Shown piece by piece: positions 1 through 5,732 of a stretch of 5,732 nt of DNA. Numbering within the stretch: position 1 is the stretch's first letter; each line of letters begins with the position of its first letter. The position numbers and the translations under genes are program-made. The DNA comes from Escherichia coli (lineage in GTDB: Bacteria; Pseudomonadota; Gammaproteobacteria; Enterobacterales; Enterobacteriaceae). The notes under the pieces were generated by a model. That model did not search any database. It worked only from the letters and a program-made list of their open reading frames with translations, and was not told the DNA's origin. The DNA lies in assembly GCF_030013595.1 (NCBI RefSeq), contig NZ_CP122774.1; one strand, 5' to 3'.

Positions 1-495
1 ATGGCGGGCACAGTATGGCGTGACATAAGAACGGGAGAGACTGTTTTTCCTATGGGGCACCTGCACCCTCAGAGGTGCTGTGTTGATGTAAACGGTACTT
101 CTGTAGATATAGAAATTAGTTTTGGTTTTCATGTTTTTACTGATGAAAAACAAACCGGAATGCTGATGAAATTTAAGGAGGAACAGAGGTTTTTTTGTAG
201 GGAACGCTATGAGGGCAGCAAAACTATCGTTCACAGAATACTTACAGCGATAGAAAACGGTGAATACATTACAGCATTTATTTCAAAGGGGCAGGGGCAG
301 CGGTATTACCATCTTAGCCATCATGATGACTTCATTTTGATGGAAATAAGAAAGCCTCAAGATAGAAATAATTCTTTGCGTATTCATGTTGTTACAGCTT
401 ACACGCTTGATGAATGGGGGACTGTAAATAAAGGACGTAACCTGCGGTTTAGATATGTGCTGGAACAGCGACTGCAGGGAAAGAAGATTGTGTAA
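1..495 (+). CDS. Hypothetical protein, 164 aa, family not recognised; probable distal gene of a two-gene cargo cassette (candidate effector)
   Basis: Uninterrupted ORF from ATG at 1 to TAA at 493-495. A hairpin with flanking A and T tracts follows immediately (496-530). If the window ends are joined, GGAGG (5723-5727) lies 5 nt upstream of this ATG. AT-rich codon usage differs from the mob backbone. No motif I can name with confidence. Confidence 0.6.
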   Translation: MAGTVWRDIRTGETVFPMGHLHPQRCCVDVNGTSVDIEISFGFHVFTDEKQTGMLMKFKEEQRFFCRERYEGSKTIVHRILTAIENGEYITAFISKGQGQRYYHLSHHDDFILMEIRKPQDRNNSLRIHVVTAYTLDEWGTVNKGRNLRFRYVLEQRLQGKKIV

Positions 496-530
496 AAAAC
501 AAAAAGCGCCTAAGGCGCCTTTGTTTTTTG
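496..530 (+). terminator. Rho-independent terminator, potentially bidirectional (A tract, GC hairpin, T tract)
   Basis: GC stem gcgcc (506-510) pairs with ggcgc (514-518) around a taa loop. It is preceded by aaaaaacaaaaa and followed by ctttgtttttt, directly after the stop of the 164-aa ORF. Confidence 0.7.
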
Positions 531-680
531 CAGAATTTCGGTCTGGCCTTTCGTTATCCCGCTCACAGGCTGGGAGGGTGTGACCCCCGGCATCAGCACC
601 CCTCTCTCGAGGTTCCGGTTTGTGCTGACAACATTAGTATCCTATTCCACATGTTCGTTGTCAAACTAGCGTACTTTTTG

Positions 681-770
681 GTGTTCATTGGTGTTTATAG
701 GTTGTCATTTACCCTCTTTGTGGTTATAAGTGTTTATAGGTTTTCATTGTTTTTTATAGGTGTTCATATG
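681..770 (+). repeat. Phased direct repeats (operator- or iteron-like) overlapping the promoter, SD and start of the HTH gene
   Basis: gtgtttataggttgtcatt (691-709) and gtgtttataggttttcatt (730-748) match at 18 of 19 positions. A third copy, tttataggtgttcat, lies at 753-767 and a degenerate ggttataag at 722-730. The sub-motif GTKKTCAT begins near 681, 701, 741 and 761, so spacings are multiples of about 10 bp. Confidence 0.55.
702..730 (+). promoter_or_regulatory. Putative sigma70 promoter of the HTH gene
   Basis: -35 TTGTCA (702-707), 17-bp spacer, -10 TATAAG (725-730). This predicts a leader of about 30 nt before ATG 768. Both hexamers are embedded in the repeat array. Confidence 0.45.
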
Positions 771-1070
771 AAGTTGCTTGATAGTAATGAAGTGTGTGAG
801 CTCTTAGGCATCAGTAAGTCCACTTTGTATCGTTGGTGCGGGGTGTCTGAGGATTTTTCTGGCTTGGGTCTAAGTAGCGGTCTTCCTCAGGCTAACGCTA
901 CTCAGAACTCTTTAGGCAGGGAAAATAGGCTCGTTAGGAGGGAATTACAGCAAAACGCTCTCGGTGTCGAAGAGACGCCAAGCGACTTCCCTCGTCCTTT
1001 CAAGATCGGTCGTTCGTTTAAATGGAAAGACGCCGAAATTATGGCTTGGCTTGAAACGCGACGCGTTTGA
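768..1070 (+). CDS. AlpA/excisionase-type (HTH_17, MerR-superfamily-like) DNA-binding protein, 100 aa, with an internal insertion of about 45 aa
   Basis: The N-terminus MKLLDSNEVCELLGISKSTLYRWC is the canonical HTH_17 helix-turn-helix. The C-terminus FPRPFKIGRSFKWKDAEIMAWLE is the canonical wing (KxG-R-x-x-W-x-x-x-E-hydrophobic-x-x-W-hydrophobic). AGGTG (757-761) sits 6 nt before ATG 768. The track ORF starts at 528, but residues 1-80 are a translation of the repeat DNA. Confidence 0.6.
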   Translation: MKLLDSNEVCELLGISKSTLYRWCGVSEDFSGLGLSSGLPQANATQNSLGRENRLVRRELQQNALGVEETPSDFPRPFKIGRSFKWKDAEIMAWLETRRV

Positions 1071-1083
1071 TTGATAGATCTTC

Positions 1084-1112
1084 TTGAGATCATTTGGATC
1101 TCGTCGTAGTCT
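1084..1112 (+). promoter_or_regulatory. RNA II (primer) promoter P2
   Basis: -35 TTGAGA (1084-1089), 17-bp spacer, -10 TAGTCT (1107-1112). This is collinear with pMB1 TTGAGA-17-TAATCT as I recall it. Confidence 0.75.
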
Positions 1113-1120
1113 TTTGTCCT

Positions 1121-1227
1121 GTAAACGAAAAAACCACCATGGCAGGTGGTTTTTCGAAGGTTATTTAATCCTGGCAGATTGAATAACCGTGGTAACAGCC
1201 TTGTGCGAGACGTGTCACCAAATCTGT
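1121..1227 (-). ncRNA. RNA I, antisense copy-number and incompatibility regulator
   Basis: It is the complement of the RNA II 5' region. The start aligns with pMB1 ACAGTATTTGG (here the reverse complement of accaaatctgt, ending at 1227). Three hairpins are visible: aaccacc/ggtggtt, ggttatt-aatc/gatt-aataacc, and ggtaaca/tgtcacc with mismatches. Its own promoter lies just upstream on the minus strand. Confidence 0.8.
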
Positions 1228-1233
1228 CCTTTC

Positions 1234-1263
1234 AGTGTAGCCTCACTAAGGCCACCACTTCAA
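1234..1263 (-). promoter_or_regulatory. RNA I promoter P1
   Basis: The minus strand reads TTGAAG (1263-1258), then 17-18 bp, then TACACT (1239-1234). This is conserved with the pMB1 TTGAAG...CTACACT arrangement. Confidence 0.7.
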
Positions 1264-1697
1264 GAACTTTGAATACATCTCTCGCACATCCTGTTTACCA
1301 ATGGCTACCGCCACTGGCGATTTTTCGTGTCTGTTCCGGGTTGGACTCAAGATGATAGTTACCGGGACAACGTGGTAGTCGGGCTGAACGGGGGGTTCTT
1401 GCATACAGCCCAGCTTGGAGCGAACTGTCTAAACGGAACGGGACGTGGTGATTTAGGTAAAGCTTCCACCACAACACGGATGCCGCAGGACGGGAACAGG
1501 AGAGCGCAAGAGGGAGCCGCCAGGGGGAAACGCCTGGTATCTTTAAGTCCTGTCGGGTTTCGCCACCTCTGACTTGAGCGTCGATTTTTGTGATGCTCGT
1601 CAGGGGGGCGGAGCCTATGGAAAAACGCCAGCGGCGTGGCCTTCTCTGGGTTCTTGTTTTTTGCTCACATGTTTCTTTTGGTGTTATCCCCTGATTC

Positions 1698-1706
1698 TGT
1701 GGATAA
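1698..1706 (-). promoter_or_regulatory. DnaA box downstream of the origin
   Basis: tgtggataa on the + strand equals TTATCCACA on the - strand, an exact consensus DnaA box. It is at the same position as the known box in ColE1/pBR322. Confidence 0.6.
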
Positions 1707-1814
1707 CCGCATTACCGTCTTTGAGTGAGCTGATACCGCTCGCCGCAGCCGAACGACCGAGCGTAGCGAGTCAGTGAGCGAGGAAGCGGAAGAGCGTCGG
1801 AAGTTGCATTTTCT

Positions 1815-1985
1815 CCTTACACATCTGTGCGGCATTTCACACCCGGCATGGCGCACTTTTCATACAATCCGCACTGATGCCGCATGGTTAAGCCAGTATA
1901 CACTCCGCTATCGCTACGTGACTGGGTCATGGCTGCGGCCTGACGCGCCCTGACGGGCTTGTCTGCTCCCGGCATCCGCTCACAG
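1815..1985 (-). other. oriT / bom (basis of mobility) with the ColE1-type nic site
   Basis: Collinear with the remembered pBR322 bom region (gatgccgcat.gttaagccagtatacactccgctatcgctacgtgactgggtcatggctgcg ... ctgacgcgccctgacgggcttgtctgctcccggcatccgct.acagacaagctgtgaccgtctccgggagctg). taagccag (1889-1896) is the complement of CTGG/CTTA, the published MbeA nick motif. This places nic between 1893 and 1892 on the minus strand. Confidence 0.75.
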
Positions 1986-2018
1986 ACAAGCTGTGACCGT
2001 CTCCGGGAGCTGTATGTG

Positions 2019-2210
2019 TCAGAGGTTTTCACCGTCATCCCCGAAGCGTGCGAGGCAGCTGCGGTAAAGCTCATCGGCGTGGTCGTGAAGCGATTCACAG
2101 ATGTCTGCCTGTTCATCCGCGTCCAGTTCGTTGAGCTTTTCCAGCAGCGTTAATGTCTGGCTTCTGATAAAGCGGGCCATGTTAAGGGCGGTTTTTTCCT
2201 GTTTAGTCAC
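2019..2210 (-). CDS. rop: Rop/Rom, RNA I-RNA II kissing-complex stabiliser (63 aa)
   Basis: The translation MTKQEKTALNMARFIRSQTLTLLEKLNELDADEQADICESLHDHADELYRSCLARFGDDGENL matches the Rop sequence of pBR322/ColE1 as I remember it. The position (ori, bom, rop convergent with RNA II) is canonical. Confidence 0.95.
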   Translation of the reverse strand: MTKQEKTALNMARFIRSQTLTLLEKLNELDADEQADICESLHDHADELYRSCLARFGDDGENL

Positions 2211-2250
2211 TGATGCCTCCGTGTAAGGGGGGATTTCTGTTCATGGGGTA

Positions 2251-2598
2251 ATGATACCGATGAAACGCGAGAGGATGCTCACGATACGGGTTACTGATGA
2301 TGAACATGCACGGTTACTGGAACGCTGTGAGGGTAAACAGCTGGCGGTATGGATGCGGCGGGTCTGTCTGGGTGAGCCGGTTGCCCGTTCCGGGAAGCTG
2401 CCGACACTGGCACCGCCGTTACTGCGCCAGCTGGCTGCCATCGGGAATAATCTGAATCAGACGGCGAGGAAGGTGAACAGCGGGCAGTGGTCTTCCGGTG
2501 ACCGGGTTCAGGTGGTGGCCGCACTGATGGCCATCGAGAGAGAGTTGCGCAGCTTACGGCAGGTCGTCAGGGAACATGGAGCGCGGGATGATAGTTAA
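2251..2598 (+). CDS. mbeC: MbeC, ribbon-helix-helix relaxosome accessory protein (MobC-like)
   Basis: MLTIRVTDDEHARLLERCEGKQLAVWMRRVCLGEPVARSGKLPTLAPPLLRQLAAIGNNLNQTARKVNSG... matches the remembered ColE1 MbeC. The RHH beta-strand LTIRVTDDE is present. Its stop (2596-2598) overlaps the mbeA start. The start is ambiguous: in-frame ATGs occur at 2251, 2260 and 2275. Confidence 0.88.
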   Translation: MIPMKRERMLTIRVTDDEHARLLERCEGKQLAVWMRRVCLGEPVARSGKLPTLAPPLLRQLAAIGNNLNQTARKVNSGQWSSGDRVQVVAALMAIERELRSLRQVVREHGARDDS

Positions 2599-4330
2599 GT
2601 TTCATGCCAGGGGAAAAGGCGGTGGCAGTGGTCCGGTTGATTACCTGCTGGGAAGGGAGCGTAACCGGGAAGGGGCAACGGTGCTTCAGGGTAATCCGGA
2701 AGAAGTCCGGGAACTCATCGATGCCACGCCATTTGCGAAGAAATACACGTCAGGTGTTCTGTCGTTCGCGGAGAAGGAGCTGCCGCCTGGAGGGCGTGAA
2801 AAAGTGATGGCGAGCTTTGAGCGTGTACTGATGCCCGGTCTCGAGAAAAATCAGTACAGCATCCTGTGGGTGGAGCACCAGGACAAGGGACGGCTTGAGC
2901 TGAATTTTGTCATTCCGAACATGGAGCTACAGACCGGAAAACGCCTCCAGCCGTACTACGACCGGGCAGACAGGCCGAGAATTGATGCCTGGCAGACGCT
3001 GGTTAATCACCATTACGGGCTGCATGACCCCAACGCCCCGGAGAACCGCCGGACGCTGACCCTTCCTGATAACCTGCCGGAAACGAAACAGGCGCTTGCA
3101 GAGAGCGTCACACGCGGGATAGACGCTCTTTATCATGTCGGGGAGATAAAAGGCCGTCAGGATGTGATTCAGGCGCTCACAGAGGCAGGGCTTGAAGTGG
3201 TCAGGGTGACGCGAAGCAGTATCAGCATTGCAGACCCGAACGGTGGGAAGAATATCAGGCTGAAAGGAGCATTTTATGAGCAATCTTTTACAGACGGGCG
3301 CGGAGTTCGAGAAAAAGCTGAAAGAGAGAGCCGAATCTACAGAGACAATGCTGAACGACGAGTTCAGCAAGCTCGAAAAATCTGTAAGCAAGGCTGTGAC
3401 ATCAAACGAGACGAAAATCAAAGACGCTATAGCCCTGTTCACAGCTTCGACAGAGGAATCACTGAAAAAACACCGGGAAGGGGTGAAAGAGGCGATGATG
3501 CAGCACAGGAAGGACGTGTTAAAGCTGGCAGGGAATACGGGCATGATGTTACTGGGGATGGTCCTTTTCCTGTTTACCGTGAGTGGCGGGACGCTCTGGT
3601 ATCTTGGCGGGCGGATACAGGCGAACCTGGAAGAAATCAGGATACAGGAAGAAACATTGCAGAAACTGAACGCGAAGACATGGGGCGTGGAGTTTGTGCA
3701 GGACGGGAGAAGGAAATTTCTGGTCATCCCGCAGGGGAAATCGGCAACGGTGATTCCCTATCAGGAGAAGGACTGGGTACAACTGACGGAGTGACACAGA
3801 GTGACGGAGCTGGAAAGACATTTGCTGAACGCCTTAGAGCAACTGCAACAGGACTATATGCAGCGGCTGAGCGAATGGGAGAGCGCCTTCGTGGAATTGC
3901 AGAAAATGTTTTCGCTTACGCAACGGGACAACGCGATGCTGAACGAGCAGGTCATGCAGTTGAGTCAGCAGGTGCAGCACTTGAGCGAGCGGACAGAACG
4001 CTTGAGCCAGTTATACAGCGAGAACAGGAGATAAGGGACGAACGGCTGATACAGGAGCGCGAACATGAGTTATCCCTGGAGCGTGAGCGCCAGCTGGAAA
4101 TACAGGAACGGACACTGGATGGCATGGTAATCAGAGACAGGCTAAAATGTTGTCAGCGCGTTTCCGGTGCATTTTTTGGGATAATGGTTGGTTCGGGGGC
4201 ACCGGGAACGCGCTTCAGTCAGACCTTGCTGAAAACACAGGAACGCGTTAAAACGCATACGGGCGCGATTCTGGTGTGTCTTTTGTTGCTGTGTTTTGCC
4301 TCTATTGCCAGATCGCGCTCATTCCCCTGA
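2588..4330 (+). CDS. mbeA: MbeA, MOB-HEN family conjugative relaxase (580 aa here)
   Basis: MIVKFHARGKGGGSGPVDYLLGRERNREGATVLQGNPEEVRELID... matches the remembered ColE1 MbeA. Catalytic Tyr19 is at 2642-2644. The HEN signature H97, E104 and N106 lies in WVEHQDKGRLELNFVIPN. I prefer ATG 2588 to the track start at 2576 because ColE1 MbeA begins MIVKF. After ...IQERTLDG (about 4115) the C-terminal end diverges from ColE1, so the true stop is less certain. Confidence 0.88.
   Translation: MIVKFHARGKGGGSGPVDYLLGRERNREGATVLQGNPEEVRELIDATPFAKKYTSGVLSFAEKELPPGGREKVMASFERVLMPGLEKNQYSILWVEHQDKGRLELNFVIPNMELQTGKRLQPYYDRADRPRIDAWQTLVNHHYGLHDPNAPENRRTLTLPDNLPETKQALAESVTRGIDALYHVGEIKGRQDVIQALTEAGLEVVRVTRSSISIADPNGGKNIRLKGAFYEQSFTDGRGVREKAERESRIYRDNAERRVQQARKICKQGCDIKRDENQRRYSPVHSFDRGITEKTPGRGERGDDAAQEGRVKAGREYGHDVTGDGPFPVYREWRDALVSWRADTGEPGRNQDTGRNIAETEREDMGRGVCAGREKEISGHPAGEIGNGDSLSGEGLGTTDGVTQSDGAGKTFAERLRATATGLYAAAERMGERLRGIAENVFAYATGQRDAERAGHAVESAGAALERADRTLEPVIQREQEIRDERLIQEREHELSLERERQLEIQERTLDGMVIRDRLKCCQRVSGAFFGIMVGSGAPGTRFSQTLLKTQERVKTHTGAILVCLLLLCFASIARSRSFP
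3276..3794 (+). CDS. mbeB: MbeB mobilisation protein (172 aa), nested out of frame within mbeA
   Basis: The MSNLLQTGAEFEKKLKERAESTE... product has a central hydrophobic segment, MMLLGMVLFLFTVSGGTLWYLGG. This agrees with the remembered ColE1 MbeB. GGAG (3266-3269) lies 6 nt before the ATG. Confidence 0.85.
   Translation: MSNLLQTGAEFEKKLKERAESTETMLNDEFSKLEKSVSKAVTSNETKIKDAIALFTASTEESLKKHREGVKEAMMQHRKDVLKLAGNTGMMLLGMVLFLFTVSGGTLWYLGGRIQANLEEIRIQEETLQKLNAKTWGVEFVQDGRRKFLVIPQGKSATVIPYQEKDWVQLTE
3801..4034 (+). CDS. mbeD: MbeD mobilisation / entry-exclusion-associated protein (77 aa), nested out of frame within mbeA
   Basis: GTG start. MTELERHLLNALEQLQQDYMQRLSEWESAF..LQKMFSLTQRDNA.L... matches the remembered ColE1 MbeD. 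GGAG (3788-3791) lies 9 nt upstream. The gene starts 7 nt after the mbeB stop. Confidence 0.8.
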   Translation: MTELERHLLNALEQLQQDYMQRLSEWESAFVELQKMFSLTQRDNAMLNEQVMQLSQQVQHLSERTERLSQLYSENRR

Positions 4331-4429
4331 ACTTCTGTTTTCCCGCTCCGGTCCCCGTCTTCTTCGCTTCCGAAAGCATGAAAAAAATCCGTTTCAGCTG
4401 TCTCTGGCTGGCAATTCCTGCGTGATTCA

Positions 4430-4577
4430 CATGGCTGCATAGCTATGCATGTGGTTAAAATTTACCGGGTGCGATCGCGGCAGTTTTTCGGGTGGTTTGT
4501 TGCCATTTTTACCTGTCTGCTGCCGTGATCGCACCGAACGCGTTTCTGCGGTGCGGGCAACGGATGTTATGGTAAAT
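4430..4577 (+). other. cer: cer-like XerCD/ArgR/PepA multimer-resolution site
   Basis: Collinear with the remembered ColE1 cer (ggttaaaattta.c.gg.gcgatcgcggcagtttttcgggtggtttgttgccatttttacctgtctgctgccgtgatcgc..gaacgcgttt). The core is a GGTGCGGGCAA XerC arm (4550-4560), a cggatg spacer (4561-4566) and a TTATGGTAAAT XerD arm (4567-4577). The ARG-box-position palindrome TGCATAGCTATGCA (4436-4449) lies about 105 bp upstream. The left boundary is approximate. ColE1 cer also encodes the Rcd RNA, which I cannot map here. Confidence 0.85.
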
Positions 4578-4693
4578 ATTGGTGCTCTGGGATGAAGCGA
4601 AAATAGGCTTTTTTTCGCTATTTTAGCCTGTTCAGGAACGGCAAGAGTAAATATCTGGGAGCATGAAGCTCGTTAACCTGAATGGAGATCCTG

Positions 4694-4858
4694 ATGATGG
4701 ACAAAGATACCACCACCCTAAAACGCACTTTGGCTCATAATCGAGCCTTTAGCGATAATATTAACCGCAGTGGCATAGCCTGGTGCTATAACACTGAGAT
4801 TGTACTCGCTGCTTGTGAGGCGATTGAAGCCGAACTACAACGGCGAGGATGTTTGTAA
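4694..4858 (+). CDS. Small hypothetical protein, 54 aa (below the ORF-track cutoff)
   Basis: Hand translation gives MMDKDTTTLKRTLAHNRAFSDNINRSGIAWCYNTEIVLAACEAIEAELQRRGCL, ending at TAA 4856-4858. GGAG (4684-4687) lies 6 nt before ATG 4694. A strong terminator begins 8 nt after the stop. An in-frame ATG at 4682 is an alternative start. Confidence 0.5.
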   Translation: MMDKDTTTLKRTLAHNRAFSDNINRSGIAWCYNTEIVLAACEAIEAELQRRGCL

Positions 4859-4865
4859 CAATAAG

Positions 4866-4889
4866 AAAACCCGCATCAGCGGGTTTTTT
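4866..4889 (+). terminator. Rho-independent terminator
   Basis: aaaacccgc-atca-gcgggtttttt. The stem is 4866-4874 paired with 4879-4887, the loop is atca, and the T run ends at 4889. Confidence 0.8.
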
Positions 4890-4960
4890 AGTCTCTGAGA
4901 CGCGCTACCGCTAAATTATTTTTCTCTCTATCCGCCCTGGCTTGCCCCCTACAACCCCAT

Positions 4961-5005
4961 GGAGCACAAGGAGCACAGGGAGAACCATCGAGCACAACGA
5001 GCACC
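4961..5005 (+). repeat. Five tandem, phased GAG(C/A)AC(A) repeats (iteron- or operator-like)
   Basis: GAGCAC occurs at 4962, 4971, 4990 and 4999, and GAGAAC at 4980. Spacings are 9, 9, 10 and 9 bp. The array sits in a GC-rich patch immediately 5' of a very AT-rich tract and the wHTH gene. Confidence 0.6.
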
Positions 5006-5054
5006 GCCTTCCTCTTATAAATCATTATTAATCATATAATTAAACAACTTCATT

Positions 5055-5068
5055 GTAATATATATTAC
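5055..5068. repeat. Perfect 14-bp palindrome GTAATATATATTAC in the AT-rich tract
   Basis: The sequence read directly is self-complementary over all 14 bp. A related tgtaat recurs at 5084-5089. Confidence 0.5.
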
Positions 5069-5163
5069 TTTTTATGTTTTTAAATGTAATGTTTATTGCG
5101 ATTTAGCTTGTTTTTAACTCTATTTTTTCAGATGAGAACAAGCTGCCAGCAATGAATAACTAT

Positions 5164-5191
5164 TTGATTTTATTGGTTTTTTCAATAAATT
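5164..5191 (+). promoter_or_regulatory. Putative sigma70 promoter of the wHTH/164-aa cassette
   Basis: -35 TTGATT (5164-5169), 16-bp spacer, -10 TAAATT (5186-5191). The predicted start near 5198 is upstream of the SD GGGAG (5209-5213). In such AT-rich DNA the hexamer matches are weak evidence. Confidence 0.35.
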
Positions 5192-5219
5192 AGTGTCCAT
5201 AGACAAACGGGAGACGACT

Positions 5220-5732
5220 ATGTCCGCAAGAGCAAGAAAAGCAGGTAAGAGAAATCAGTCAGAACGACGTCAGGATTTGATTGAAAAATTGTGGGAAGAC
5301 GACGAAATCGATACTTGGCATCGACTTGAAAATGATGGGTACTCAACAGTTCCACGTTATTTGCCTTTGATAGGCGATCTCATGGATGGTCTGTCAAAAG
5401 GATCACCATTATCAACAACCTACTTGGCTTTATGGTTCAGGGTTTCTGATGAGGGGTTGATTGAAATAAGAGATAAAGCAGCACTGGCTTTTGAATCAGG
5501 GTTCGCTAGTGAAAGAGGCGTAACTACATGGGCAGGGAGAATGAAAAAGCTAAAAGAACTGGGGTTCATATCCTGTCGTGAAGGCAGCACCGGTGAATTT
5601 CATTACGTGTTAATTGTTCACCCATTAGTTGCAGTCAAAAAGCTGCTTGATGAAGGGATTATCCCTAAAGGAAAGACTTATAACATTTTGTCGGAGCGTG
5701 TAATTGAGGTGGGAGCCTCTTGGGAGGGTTAA
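5220..5732 (+). CDS. Winged-helix-turn-helix-like DNA-binding protein, 170 aa (regulator or Rep-like); proximal gene of the cargo cassette
   Basis: GGGAG (5209-5213) lies 6 nt before ATG 5220, which I prefer to the track GTG at 5193. The layout GYSTVPRYLPL..L...LS..STTYLALWFRV(7)IEIRDKAALAFESGFASERGVTTWAGRMKKLKELGFISCREGSTGEFHYVLIVHP is the helix/helix/recognition-helix/beta-wing pattern of MarR-, RepL- and replisome-organiser-type wHTH domains. The N-terminus is basic, MSARARKAGKRNQSERR. The family is not identified. Confidence 0.65.
   Translation: MSARARKAGKRNQSERRQDLIEKLWEDDEIDTWHRLENDGYSTVPRYLPLIGDLMDGLSKGSPLSTTYLALWFRVSDEGLIEIRDKAALAFESGFASERGVTTWAGRMKKLKELGFISCREGSTGEFHYVLIVHPLVAVKKLLDEGIIPKGKTYNILSERVIEVGASWEG

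Follow-up and report, generated by a model that had tools for sequence, protein, structure and literature searches.

The 5,732-nucleotide (nt) stretch of Escherichia coli DNA analysed here (the window, meaning always the whole stretch) is one complete unit of a closed circular ColE1-type plasmid. Its cargo was found to comprise two abutting genes, encoding a winged-helix protein of an unnamed family (gene 1) and a YjaZ-family protein (gene 2), together with a convergent gene for a small RNA (sRNA) of the SraL (RyjA) family (Table 1). It is proposed that the three form a mobile cassette made up of a regulator, a ribonuclease (RNase)-like effector and an sRNA partner, a model which, taken as a whole, is given an even chance of being correct. 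The cassette would then be a regulator-plus-effector conflict module resembling a toxin-antitoxin (TA) system, but with an sRNA partner and without the specificity of an antitoxin for its toxin. The main interest lies in the linkage of YjaZ to SraL and in a regulator family that is promiscuous with respect to its partners.

In the proposed mechanism, the winged-helix factor encoded by gene 1 would bind two palindromes at 5055-5099 and control both its own promoter and the coupled downstream gene. It would act as a generic module, with the regulator and its control region being reused before varied toxin and defence effectors. Gene 2 would be made by coupled translation and its product would act on RNA. 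The SraL-family sRNA would most likely restrain the YjaZ-family gene post-transcriptionally, in the manner of an antitoxin, or may serve as an RNA ligand; it would thus limit or direct the activity of gene 2, with at least the terminator region being common to the sRNA and the operon transcript. The putative role of the sRNA is the weakest link of the model.

The first-pass annotation of this DNA had described a two-gene module and missed the sRNA gene, which is a third conserved component. The hairpin at 496-530, which had been read as the only terminator and as belonging to the second gene, is real and was detected on both strands, but it is the intrinsic terminator of the convergent sRNA gene (stem 505-517), the 3' end of the sRNA abutting the stop codon of gene 2. 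In a 16-sequence alignment of the sRNA, compensatory changes were found in 11 of 24 pairs, and an invariant unpaired loop, ACCGGAAC, is common to the plasmid sRNA and SraL of K-12. The −35 and −10 elements of the sRNA promoter are conserved in 13 loci, K-12 ryjA among them (positions 2164-2136 of L001 in the promoter scan correspond to window positions 664-636; such L-numbers are the labels of the loci or contigs that were compared).

Searches with Rfam and with a model built here placed the sRNA directly behind a YjaZ-family gene both in the window and at loci L003, L004, L011, L012, L059, L060, L063-L077 and L079-L086. The YjaZ proteins flanked in this way come from more than 20 diverged loci, with identity to gene 2 as low as 29%, which lie on different backbones and have different upstream partners or none. 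Wherever a YjaZ-family gene is 29% or more identical to gene 2 and sufficient flanking sequence was available, the sRNA was found beside it, and the same two models detected it at none of the examined loci in which the partner of gene 1 is a different one or is lacking. A single ancestral segment carrying both genes could have been copied around, with the sRNA having no functional connection to gene 2; many of the loci do stem from similar small plasmids or metagenome contigs, and no conserved pairing of the sRNA with the gene 2 mRNA was found. Such hitch-hiking is nevertheless considered very improbable, as the proteins have diverged to 29-38% identity with RNA, promoter and position retained, the compensatory changes point to selection on the RNA, the upstream partners and replicon backbones vary, and in two loci the orientation is inverted with adjacency retained.

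A comparable arrangement is present on the K-12 chromosome, where the convergent sRNA gene sroH lies 1 nt beyond yjaZ (L103, NC_000913.3 4189786-4190487). Gene 2 shares with K-12 YjaZ (b3989, formerly htrC) both the family PF27200 and a convergent sRNA within 1 nt of the protein gene. However, the relationship between the two proteins is remote, the K-12 gene lies on the chromosome and lacks a regulator resembling gene 1, and SroH is not detectably homologous to the plasmid sRNA. The possibility that SroH is a diverged SraL was rejected, there being no convincing alignment and no match with the model built here. K-12 ryjA/sraL itself is convergent with soxR and overlaps the soxR 3' end. The plasmid sRNA resembles SraL/RyjA (RF01408) in its helices, loop, terminator and promoter layout and in being convergent with a protein gene, but unlike the chromosomal form it is carried on a plasmid, where a YjaZ-family gene takes the place of soxR as its partner. 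Chromosomal SraL is reported to bind Hfq, to depend on RpoS and to repress tig, acting in trans (PMC3753932); in contrast to this reported RpoS dependence, the plasmid sRNA has a near-consensus sigma-70 promoter. The idea that chromosomal sraL is a remnant left beside soxR was also discarded, as the metagenome loci with YjaZ and the sRNA bear no similarity to the K-12 flanks of either soxRS-ryjA or rpoC-yjaZ. In the literature, no paper was found linking YjaZ with SraL or SroH, and nothing was found on the function of yjaZ and sroH, YjaZ being listed as uncharacterised.

These data also bear on an explanation without any conflict system, in which YjaZ would be an RNA-binding or RNA-processing factor for the adjacent SraL/SroH-type sRNA (compare FinO-FinP and Rop-RNA I/II), the pair being carried by the plasmid so as to modulate host physiology, for example through tig or rho, which are reported SraL targets, with gene 1 as merely the regulator. 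The strict co-occurrence of YjaZ and the sRNA even where the orientation flips, the chromosomal location of K-12 yjaZ/sroH and the loop held in common with K-12 SraL would all suit this explanation, as would the Lys/Arg-rich C-terminal tails of many family members and the standing of SraL as a bona fide trans-acting regulator of tig (PMC3753932). It is judged quite unlikely, given that the other partners of gene 1 are toxin or defence domains, that the structural neighbours of gene 2 are nuclease toxins, and that on the chromosomes of E. coli and Salmonella SraL functions with no YjaZ-family gene beside it.

If the proposed conflict cassette is borne out, SraL and, by position only, SroH would be tied to a protein partner, which could explain the origin of SraL. 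A wider generalisation is that a YjaZ gene with an SraL-family sRNA represents a widespread and undescribed module, an RNase-like effector checked by, or acting through, a convergent Hfq-type sRNA; chromosomal SraL would then be a domesticated orphan, K-12 yjaZ-sroH a sister pair, and the gene 1 family a new plug-in regulator in wide use, serving toxin and defence cassettes of plasmids, prophages and islands. This generalisation is put forward only tentatively and is regarded as doubtful.

The second line of evidence concerns the partners of gene 1. Homologues of gene 1 are present in 43 clusters of the protein collection, in 44 GTDB species and on 20 IMG/VR contigs, the GTDB range extending from plasmids of Enterobacterales to chromosomes of Burkholderiales, Desulfobacterota, Planctomycetota, Verrucomicrobiota, Nitrospira and Acidobacteriota. 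Scans of gene 1 against Pfam, PADLOC, NCBIfam and PHROGs gave no family match, the family had no match in the PDB by sequence profile, and its predicted structure is a winged helix with flanking helices and nothing more. Behind these homologues lie genes of unrelated families (Table 1), and in the gene 1 tree the partner types are interleaved. The gene 1 proteins of L059 and L013 are 97% identical although the first is followed by YjaZ and the second by MuF_C; those of L012 (YjaZ) and L007 (PBECR2) are 81% identical and also have unrelated partners. Similarly, three copies from Burkholderiales with 66-70% mutual identity precede a remote YjaZ (L036), Abi_C (L028) and SIR2-APAZ (L046). One unannotated family of partners, 185-199 amino acids (aa) in length, has GGWDW and YLE motifs in common and 27-36% mutual identity; neither Pfam nor PADLOC matches it, and it is a candidate for a new effector.

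The earlier suggestion that the pair resembles TA or defence modules is thus upheld as far as the company of gene 1 is concerned, with predicted RNases (PBECR2, MuF_C), Abi_C, SIR2-APAZ and Ppl among its partners, but not in the simple form of a DNA-binding antitoxin with its toxin. It had also been asked whether homologues of the two genes co-occur. The pair does recur in other loci, but gene 1 is also found alone and YjaZ-family genes are also found without gene 1. As for known defence systems, PADLOC has no model for either protein, and a search of PADLOC-DB 2.0 gave no match at E ≤ 1 for gene 1, gene 2 or three gene 1 homologues.

A classical type II TA system, in which the gene 1 protein neutralises the gene 2 toxin and the complex represses the operon, the sRNA being unrelated cargo, has to be weighed here. 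The antitoxin-first order, the abutment of stop and start codons, the small sizes and the DNA-binding first gene are all typical. Moreover, a gene 1 homologue lies 0-10 nt ahead of every YjaZ-family gene with 49% identity or more, a remote pair exists in Burkholderia (L036), and other YjaZ-family genes follow a gene of Xre type. Hyperpromiscuous antitoxin domains are an established concept (PanA/Panacea) and count in favour of the same explanation. On the other hand, no matching of gene 1 to gene 2 of the kind expected between an antitoxin and its toxin was found: gene 1 proteins 97% identical occur with YjaZ and with MuF_C, which leaves almost no room for a partner-specific interface and makes a partner-specific protein antitoxin hard to reconcile with the sequences. 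Some partners, namely SIR2-APAZ and Ppl, are complete defence systems which need no antitoxin; gene 1 also occurs alone, and there are YjaZ-family genes that lack an upstream partner yet have the sRNA. A type II system is therefore considered unlikely, and gene 1 is better regarded as a regulator of the cassette, because near-identical gene 1 proteins carry unrelated partners.

The location of gene 1 homologues outside plasmids is consistent with such a regulator. In prophage-like copies (IMG/VR L104-L123, e.g. L109:605-5703) a homologue with about 40% identity lies in a conserved block, in which one strand encodes a serine recombinase and DUF2924 and the opposite strand encodes the gene 1 homologue together with a coiled-coil and a sigma-70-like protein. 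This placement, next to the recombinase gene and in front of the one for the sigma-70-like protein, is a regulatory one. Partner swapping, this prophage position and the conserved control region described below together argue for a transcription factor that is reused, with its own promoter and operators, before exchangeable effectors. In this respect gene 1 would be comparable to BrxR/CapW, winged-helix proteins with a WYL (and WCX) domain that act as defence-island regulators and precede defence systems of various kinds. The likeness is confined to function, as gene 1 has no WYL (no Pfam match to WYL or BrxR) or other sensor domain, is not related to them in sequence and is about 170 aa long. 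If correct, the unnamed winged-helix family would mark interchangeable cassettes for toxins and defence (RNases, Abi_C, short pAgo and Ppl) and would be a useful guilt-by-association marker for new effectors, including two unannotated partner families.

Within the control region of gene 1, a perfect palindrome (O1) is followed by an imperfect second copy (O2). A pattern search for the O1 sequence returned O1 itself and one copy with 3 mismatches, against a chance expectation of 0.09, and in an upstream alignment of 8 diverged cassettes with differing downstream partners the columns G36, T37, T44, T46, T47, A48 and C49 show no variation. The promoter-like element at 5164-5191, noted in the first-pass annotation, agrees with the consensus at only 8 of 12 positions and was not called by a consensus promoter scan; nevertheless, TTG of its −35 and the whole of its −10 keep their position across diverged homologous cassettes. 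Palindromes, −35, −10 and Shine-Dalgarno sequence are all kept whether the partner is YjaZ, MuF_C, PBECR2 or the family of about 185 aa, and it is probable that the gene 1 protein acts at the palindromes. Gene 1 does not begin at GTG 5193; its start is the ATG at 5220, which is preceded by a conserved GGAG. An inverted repeat at 5105-5144 (AGCTTGTT...AACAAGCT, 15-nt arms, 80% complementary), in the interval between the palindromes and the −35, was set aside as it is not conserved in related cassettes, and GC-rich repeats upstream of distant gene 1 homologues were uninformative.

Gene 2 had been described as an orphan. Its homologues carry the Pfam family PF27200 ("YjaZ"), which is precomputed on all 16 gene 2 homologue clusters, and some RefSeq records label gene 2 itself "YjaZ family protein". 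The Pfam release scanned locally predates PF27200, and with it, as with PADLOC and PHROGs, no family was returned for gene 2. The match to NCBIfam NF007263 was weak (26.6 bits) and did not reach the equivalog cut-off of 324, so that gene 2 belongs to the YjaZ family but is not an equivalog of K-12 YjaZ. Among 1.84 billion proteins the family has 199 representatives at 50% identity, all of them single-domain and of about 160-190 aa. Literature searches found no paper naming WP_001276096.1, WP_000929316.1 or PF27200.

The C-terminal half of the gene 2 model superposes, with a low structural score, on the RelE/ParE superfamily and other BECR-fold nuclease toxins (RelE, HigB, YafQ, colicin E5/D, CdiA-CT and PBECR). 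In 51 diverse members of the YjaZ family, H20, H44, R69 and S/T132 are found without exception, and R63, S73, A133 and Y134 almost without exception. BECR domains have been described as carrying Ser or Thr on the fourth strand and His or Arg on the N-terminal helix, with MuF_C and PBECR2 placed in the PBECR clade (Iyer et al., PMC5512222). This active-site description is matched by S/T132 (51 of 51 sequences), which falls within the strand at 125-135 of the model, the last of the core, and by R69 (51 of 51), within the first helix at 67-73. PBECR2 and MuF_C are, in addition, the domains which replace YjaZ in the same position behind the same regulator. Unlike the BECR toxins, gene 2 has no detectable sequence or profile similarity to them, has an extra N-terminal beta-rich part of about 65 residues with two invariant histidines, and has an sRNA as its conserved partner in place of a dedicated protein antitoxin. 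Membership of the PBECR clade was not found by Pfam or by profile similarity, BLASTP of gene 2 against the PBECR2 partner gave no similarity, the YjaZ family had no match in the PDB by sequence profile, and it was not found in IMG/VR viral contigs.

On sequence and structure prediction gene 2 is a probable RNase-like effector, and the constellation of H20, H44, R63, R69, S73, S/T132 and Y134 suggests a metal-independent endoribonuclease or another RNA-directed activity. Further YjaZ-family genes sit behind genes for an Xre repressor, a CI/LexA-like HTH-S24 repressor or a Rep3 initiator; a place behind such repressors is common among toxins, and the setting would fit a stress-inducible effector under varied transcriptional control. 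In two metagenome loci (L074:210-452 and L085:224-610) the YjaZ-family gene begins 12-13 nt after the end of a Rep3-type initiator open reading frame (ORF); these ORFs are short and may be truncated. An RNA-directed effector would be the first testable function for the YjaZ family, including the K-12 gene, whose sole functional assignment was retracted.

Several observations weigh against the three-part model. With regard to gene 2, the case for toxicity and catalysis is drawn from the sequence and the structure model, H20 and H44 belong to the N-terminal part and not to the RelE-like core, and for the chromosomal K-12 gene yjaZ no toxicity has been reported, its former assignment as htrC having been retracted. 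With hhalign, the YjaZ profile gave nothing against PBECR2 (probability 0.2%) and only a marginal match to MuF_C (probability 13%, on the V-S-A-Y strand), and a Foldseek search against the BFVD viral structures returned nothing significant. With regard to gene 1, about a quarter of the GTDB loci have no same-strand ORF downstream, and the palindromes precede the −35 by about 65-110 nt, an uncommon arrangement for a simple repressor. For the sRNA, a restricted search across loci found no conserved pairing with the gene 2 translation start, and in L003 and L086 the sRNA is on the same strand as the YjaZ-family gene (in all others it is on the opposite strand), which weighs against a strict 3'-overlap antisense mechanism. 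The window has a 10-nt anti-Shine-Dalgarno match (ACCCUCCCAG : UUGGGAGGGU), but the other loci do not conserve it, and no pairing is claimed from it; unrestricted duplex folding of the sRNA yielded only meaningless whole-length duplexes.

Enzyme toxins with RNA antitoxins are known in SymE/SymR and RalR/RalA, and txpA/RatA is a 3'-overlapping type I pair. The cassette is similar to these in that a nuclease-like gene 2 has an adjacent, convergent sRNA gene with a common terminator region. It differs from them in that only the terminator overlaps, the pairing search gave nothing conserved, two loci have the other orientation and a protein regulator gene is present as well. If the model is correct, the cassette would represent a protein-toxin/sRNA arrangement beyond the usual small-peptide type I systems.

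Table 1. Features of the cassette in the window, and partner genes found behind gene 1 homologues.
Feature	Position or locus	Strand	Basis or remark
Gene 1, WP_001276096.1, 170 aa, winged-helix, unnamed family	5220-5732	+	Proposed transcriptional regulator of the cassette
Gene 2, WP_000929316.1, 164 aa, YjaZ family; N-terminal beta-rich part and C-terminal RelE/BECR-like part	1-495	+	Predicted RNase-type effector
Shine-Dalgarno sequence of gene 2, GGAGG	5723-5727	+	Within the 3' end of gene 1; read directly
SraL (RyjA)-family sRNA gene	496-629	-	Rfam RF01408, 84.7 bits against a gathering threshold of 39, model positions 1-142 (full length)
sRNA promoter: −35 TTGACA 664-659, 17-nt spacer, −10 GATACT 641-636; start near 629	636-664	-	10/12 consensus
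Perfect palindrome GTAATATATATTAC, candidate operator O1	5055-5068	.	Pattern search and upstream alignment
Imperfect second copy GTAATGTTTATTGC, candidate operator O2	5086-5099	.	Pattern search and upstream alignment
Operon promoter-like element: −35 TTGATT 5164-5169, 16-nt spacer, −10 TAAATT 5186-5191	5164-5191	+	8/12 consensus
YjaZ-family partner	window, L011, L012, L004, L059-L063; remotely L036 (Burkholderia)		
PBECR2 partner	L007-L010		E 1e-15
MuF_C partner	L013		
Unannotated partner family, ~185-199 aa	L014:4516-5079, L097:4510-5109, L100:3045-3605		
Unannotated partner, 168 aa	L020:3085-3591		No family match
Unannotated small partners directly downstream of gene 1 homologues	L040:4642-5100, L049:4563-4982		No family match
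Abi_C partner, ~271 aa	seven loci		
SIR2-APAZ partner of short pAgo systems	L046		PADLOC E 1e-205
Ppl partner	L035		E 5e-32

The abutment of genes 1 and 2 depends on the joining of the two ends of the window. Read directly, the window ends with TAA (5730-5732) and begins with ATG (1-3), and when the ends are joined the five nucleotides GTTAA separate the Shine-Dalgarno sequence GGAGG from the ATG of gene 2. That the ends meet in this way, as the first-pass annotation had predicted, was confirmed in three ways. In the trimer record NZ_CP127261.1 the coding sequence of WP_001276096.1 (170 aa) is followed by that of WP_000929316.1 (164 aa) with zero spacer. One 5775-bp unit of this trimer aligns with window positions 1-5732 from end to end, the 45 gap positions all being internal. 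Thirdly, a query spanning the junction found contiguous matches with 99-100% identity in monomer records linearised elsewhere (e.g. NZ_CP051611.1 806-2155). The TAA|ATG abutment is also unbroken in contigs L011 and L055-L058, metagenome contigs included, and in homologous cassettes the spacing of gene 1 and its partner is a gap of 0-10 nt or a 4-nt overlap. The prediction of an operon split by the linearisation point is therefore correct, and the data support translational coupling of the two genes, which occupy the cargo slot flanked by cer and oriV, as originally assigned.

An RNA I/RNA II replicon with rop and mob genes, as expected of the closed 5,732-bp circle, was borne out as well. RNAI was detected by Rfam at 1125-1226 on the minus strand (77 bits), near-identical records carry annotated Rop, MobC, MbeB and MbeD, and mobilizable E. 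coli plasmids of about 5.8 kb match the whole window with 99% identity. With the junction-spanning query the cassette was found in 16 of 5426 complete E. coli genomes, on a plasmid in all of them; it is thus rare in this species, and its importance would lie in mechanisms and not in epidemiology.

A role for gene 1 in plasmid maintenance, as a protein resembling a replication initiator or binding a centromere and acting on the palindromes, with gene 2 as incidental cargo, is considered extremely improbable. Some YjaZ-family genes do follow Rep3 initiator genes, and solo copies of gene 1 are present in Rep3 plasmids, where they adjoin Rep3 operons. However, this plasmid replicates by the ColE1 RNA I/II mechanism, homologues of gene 1 are found in chromosomes and prophages and beside defence genes, and a Pfam scan gave no sequence match of gene 1 to Rep or Par families. 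A 148-aa gene convergent with the solo gene 1 copies was examined as a possible YjaZ-family member and rejected, as it encodes a helix-turn-helix (HTH) protein.

A number of minor observations were made on the plasmid and its relatives. The contig L011 (NZ_UNOZ01000043.1, 6239 bp) is filed as Pseudomonas reidholzensis and encodes gene 1 and gene 2 proteins identical to those of the window; either contamination or, for an E. coli plasmid of ColE1 type, an uncommonly wide host range might explain this. At 4961-5004, about 60 nt upstream of the palindromes, there are 4.8 copies of a 9-bp tandem repeat, GGAGCACAA, the copy number of which differs from that in the 5775-bp relatives, explaining part of the 43-bp difference in length. 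Further upstream, a small ORF of 58 aa at 4682-4858 (+), for which the annotation gives a 54-aa hypothetical protein (WP_000968835.1), has a match to phrog_35409 (E 3e-13), and a terminator lies behind it. In the ColE1-like plasmids L011-L014, homologues of WP_000968835.1 lie upstream of gene 1, irrespective of the partner of gene 1. Beyond the sRNA promoter, four copies of an iteron-like repeat with a phasing of about 10 bp (GTGTTTATAGGTT-like) at 675-767 precede an ORF at 768-1070 (+), which encodes a 100-aa AlpA/HTH_17/excisionase-like protein. A homologue of this AlpA-like ORF with 52-87% identity adjoins the cassette in L011, L012 and L055-L058 and, inverted, in L004-L006; none adjoins it in L059-L063.

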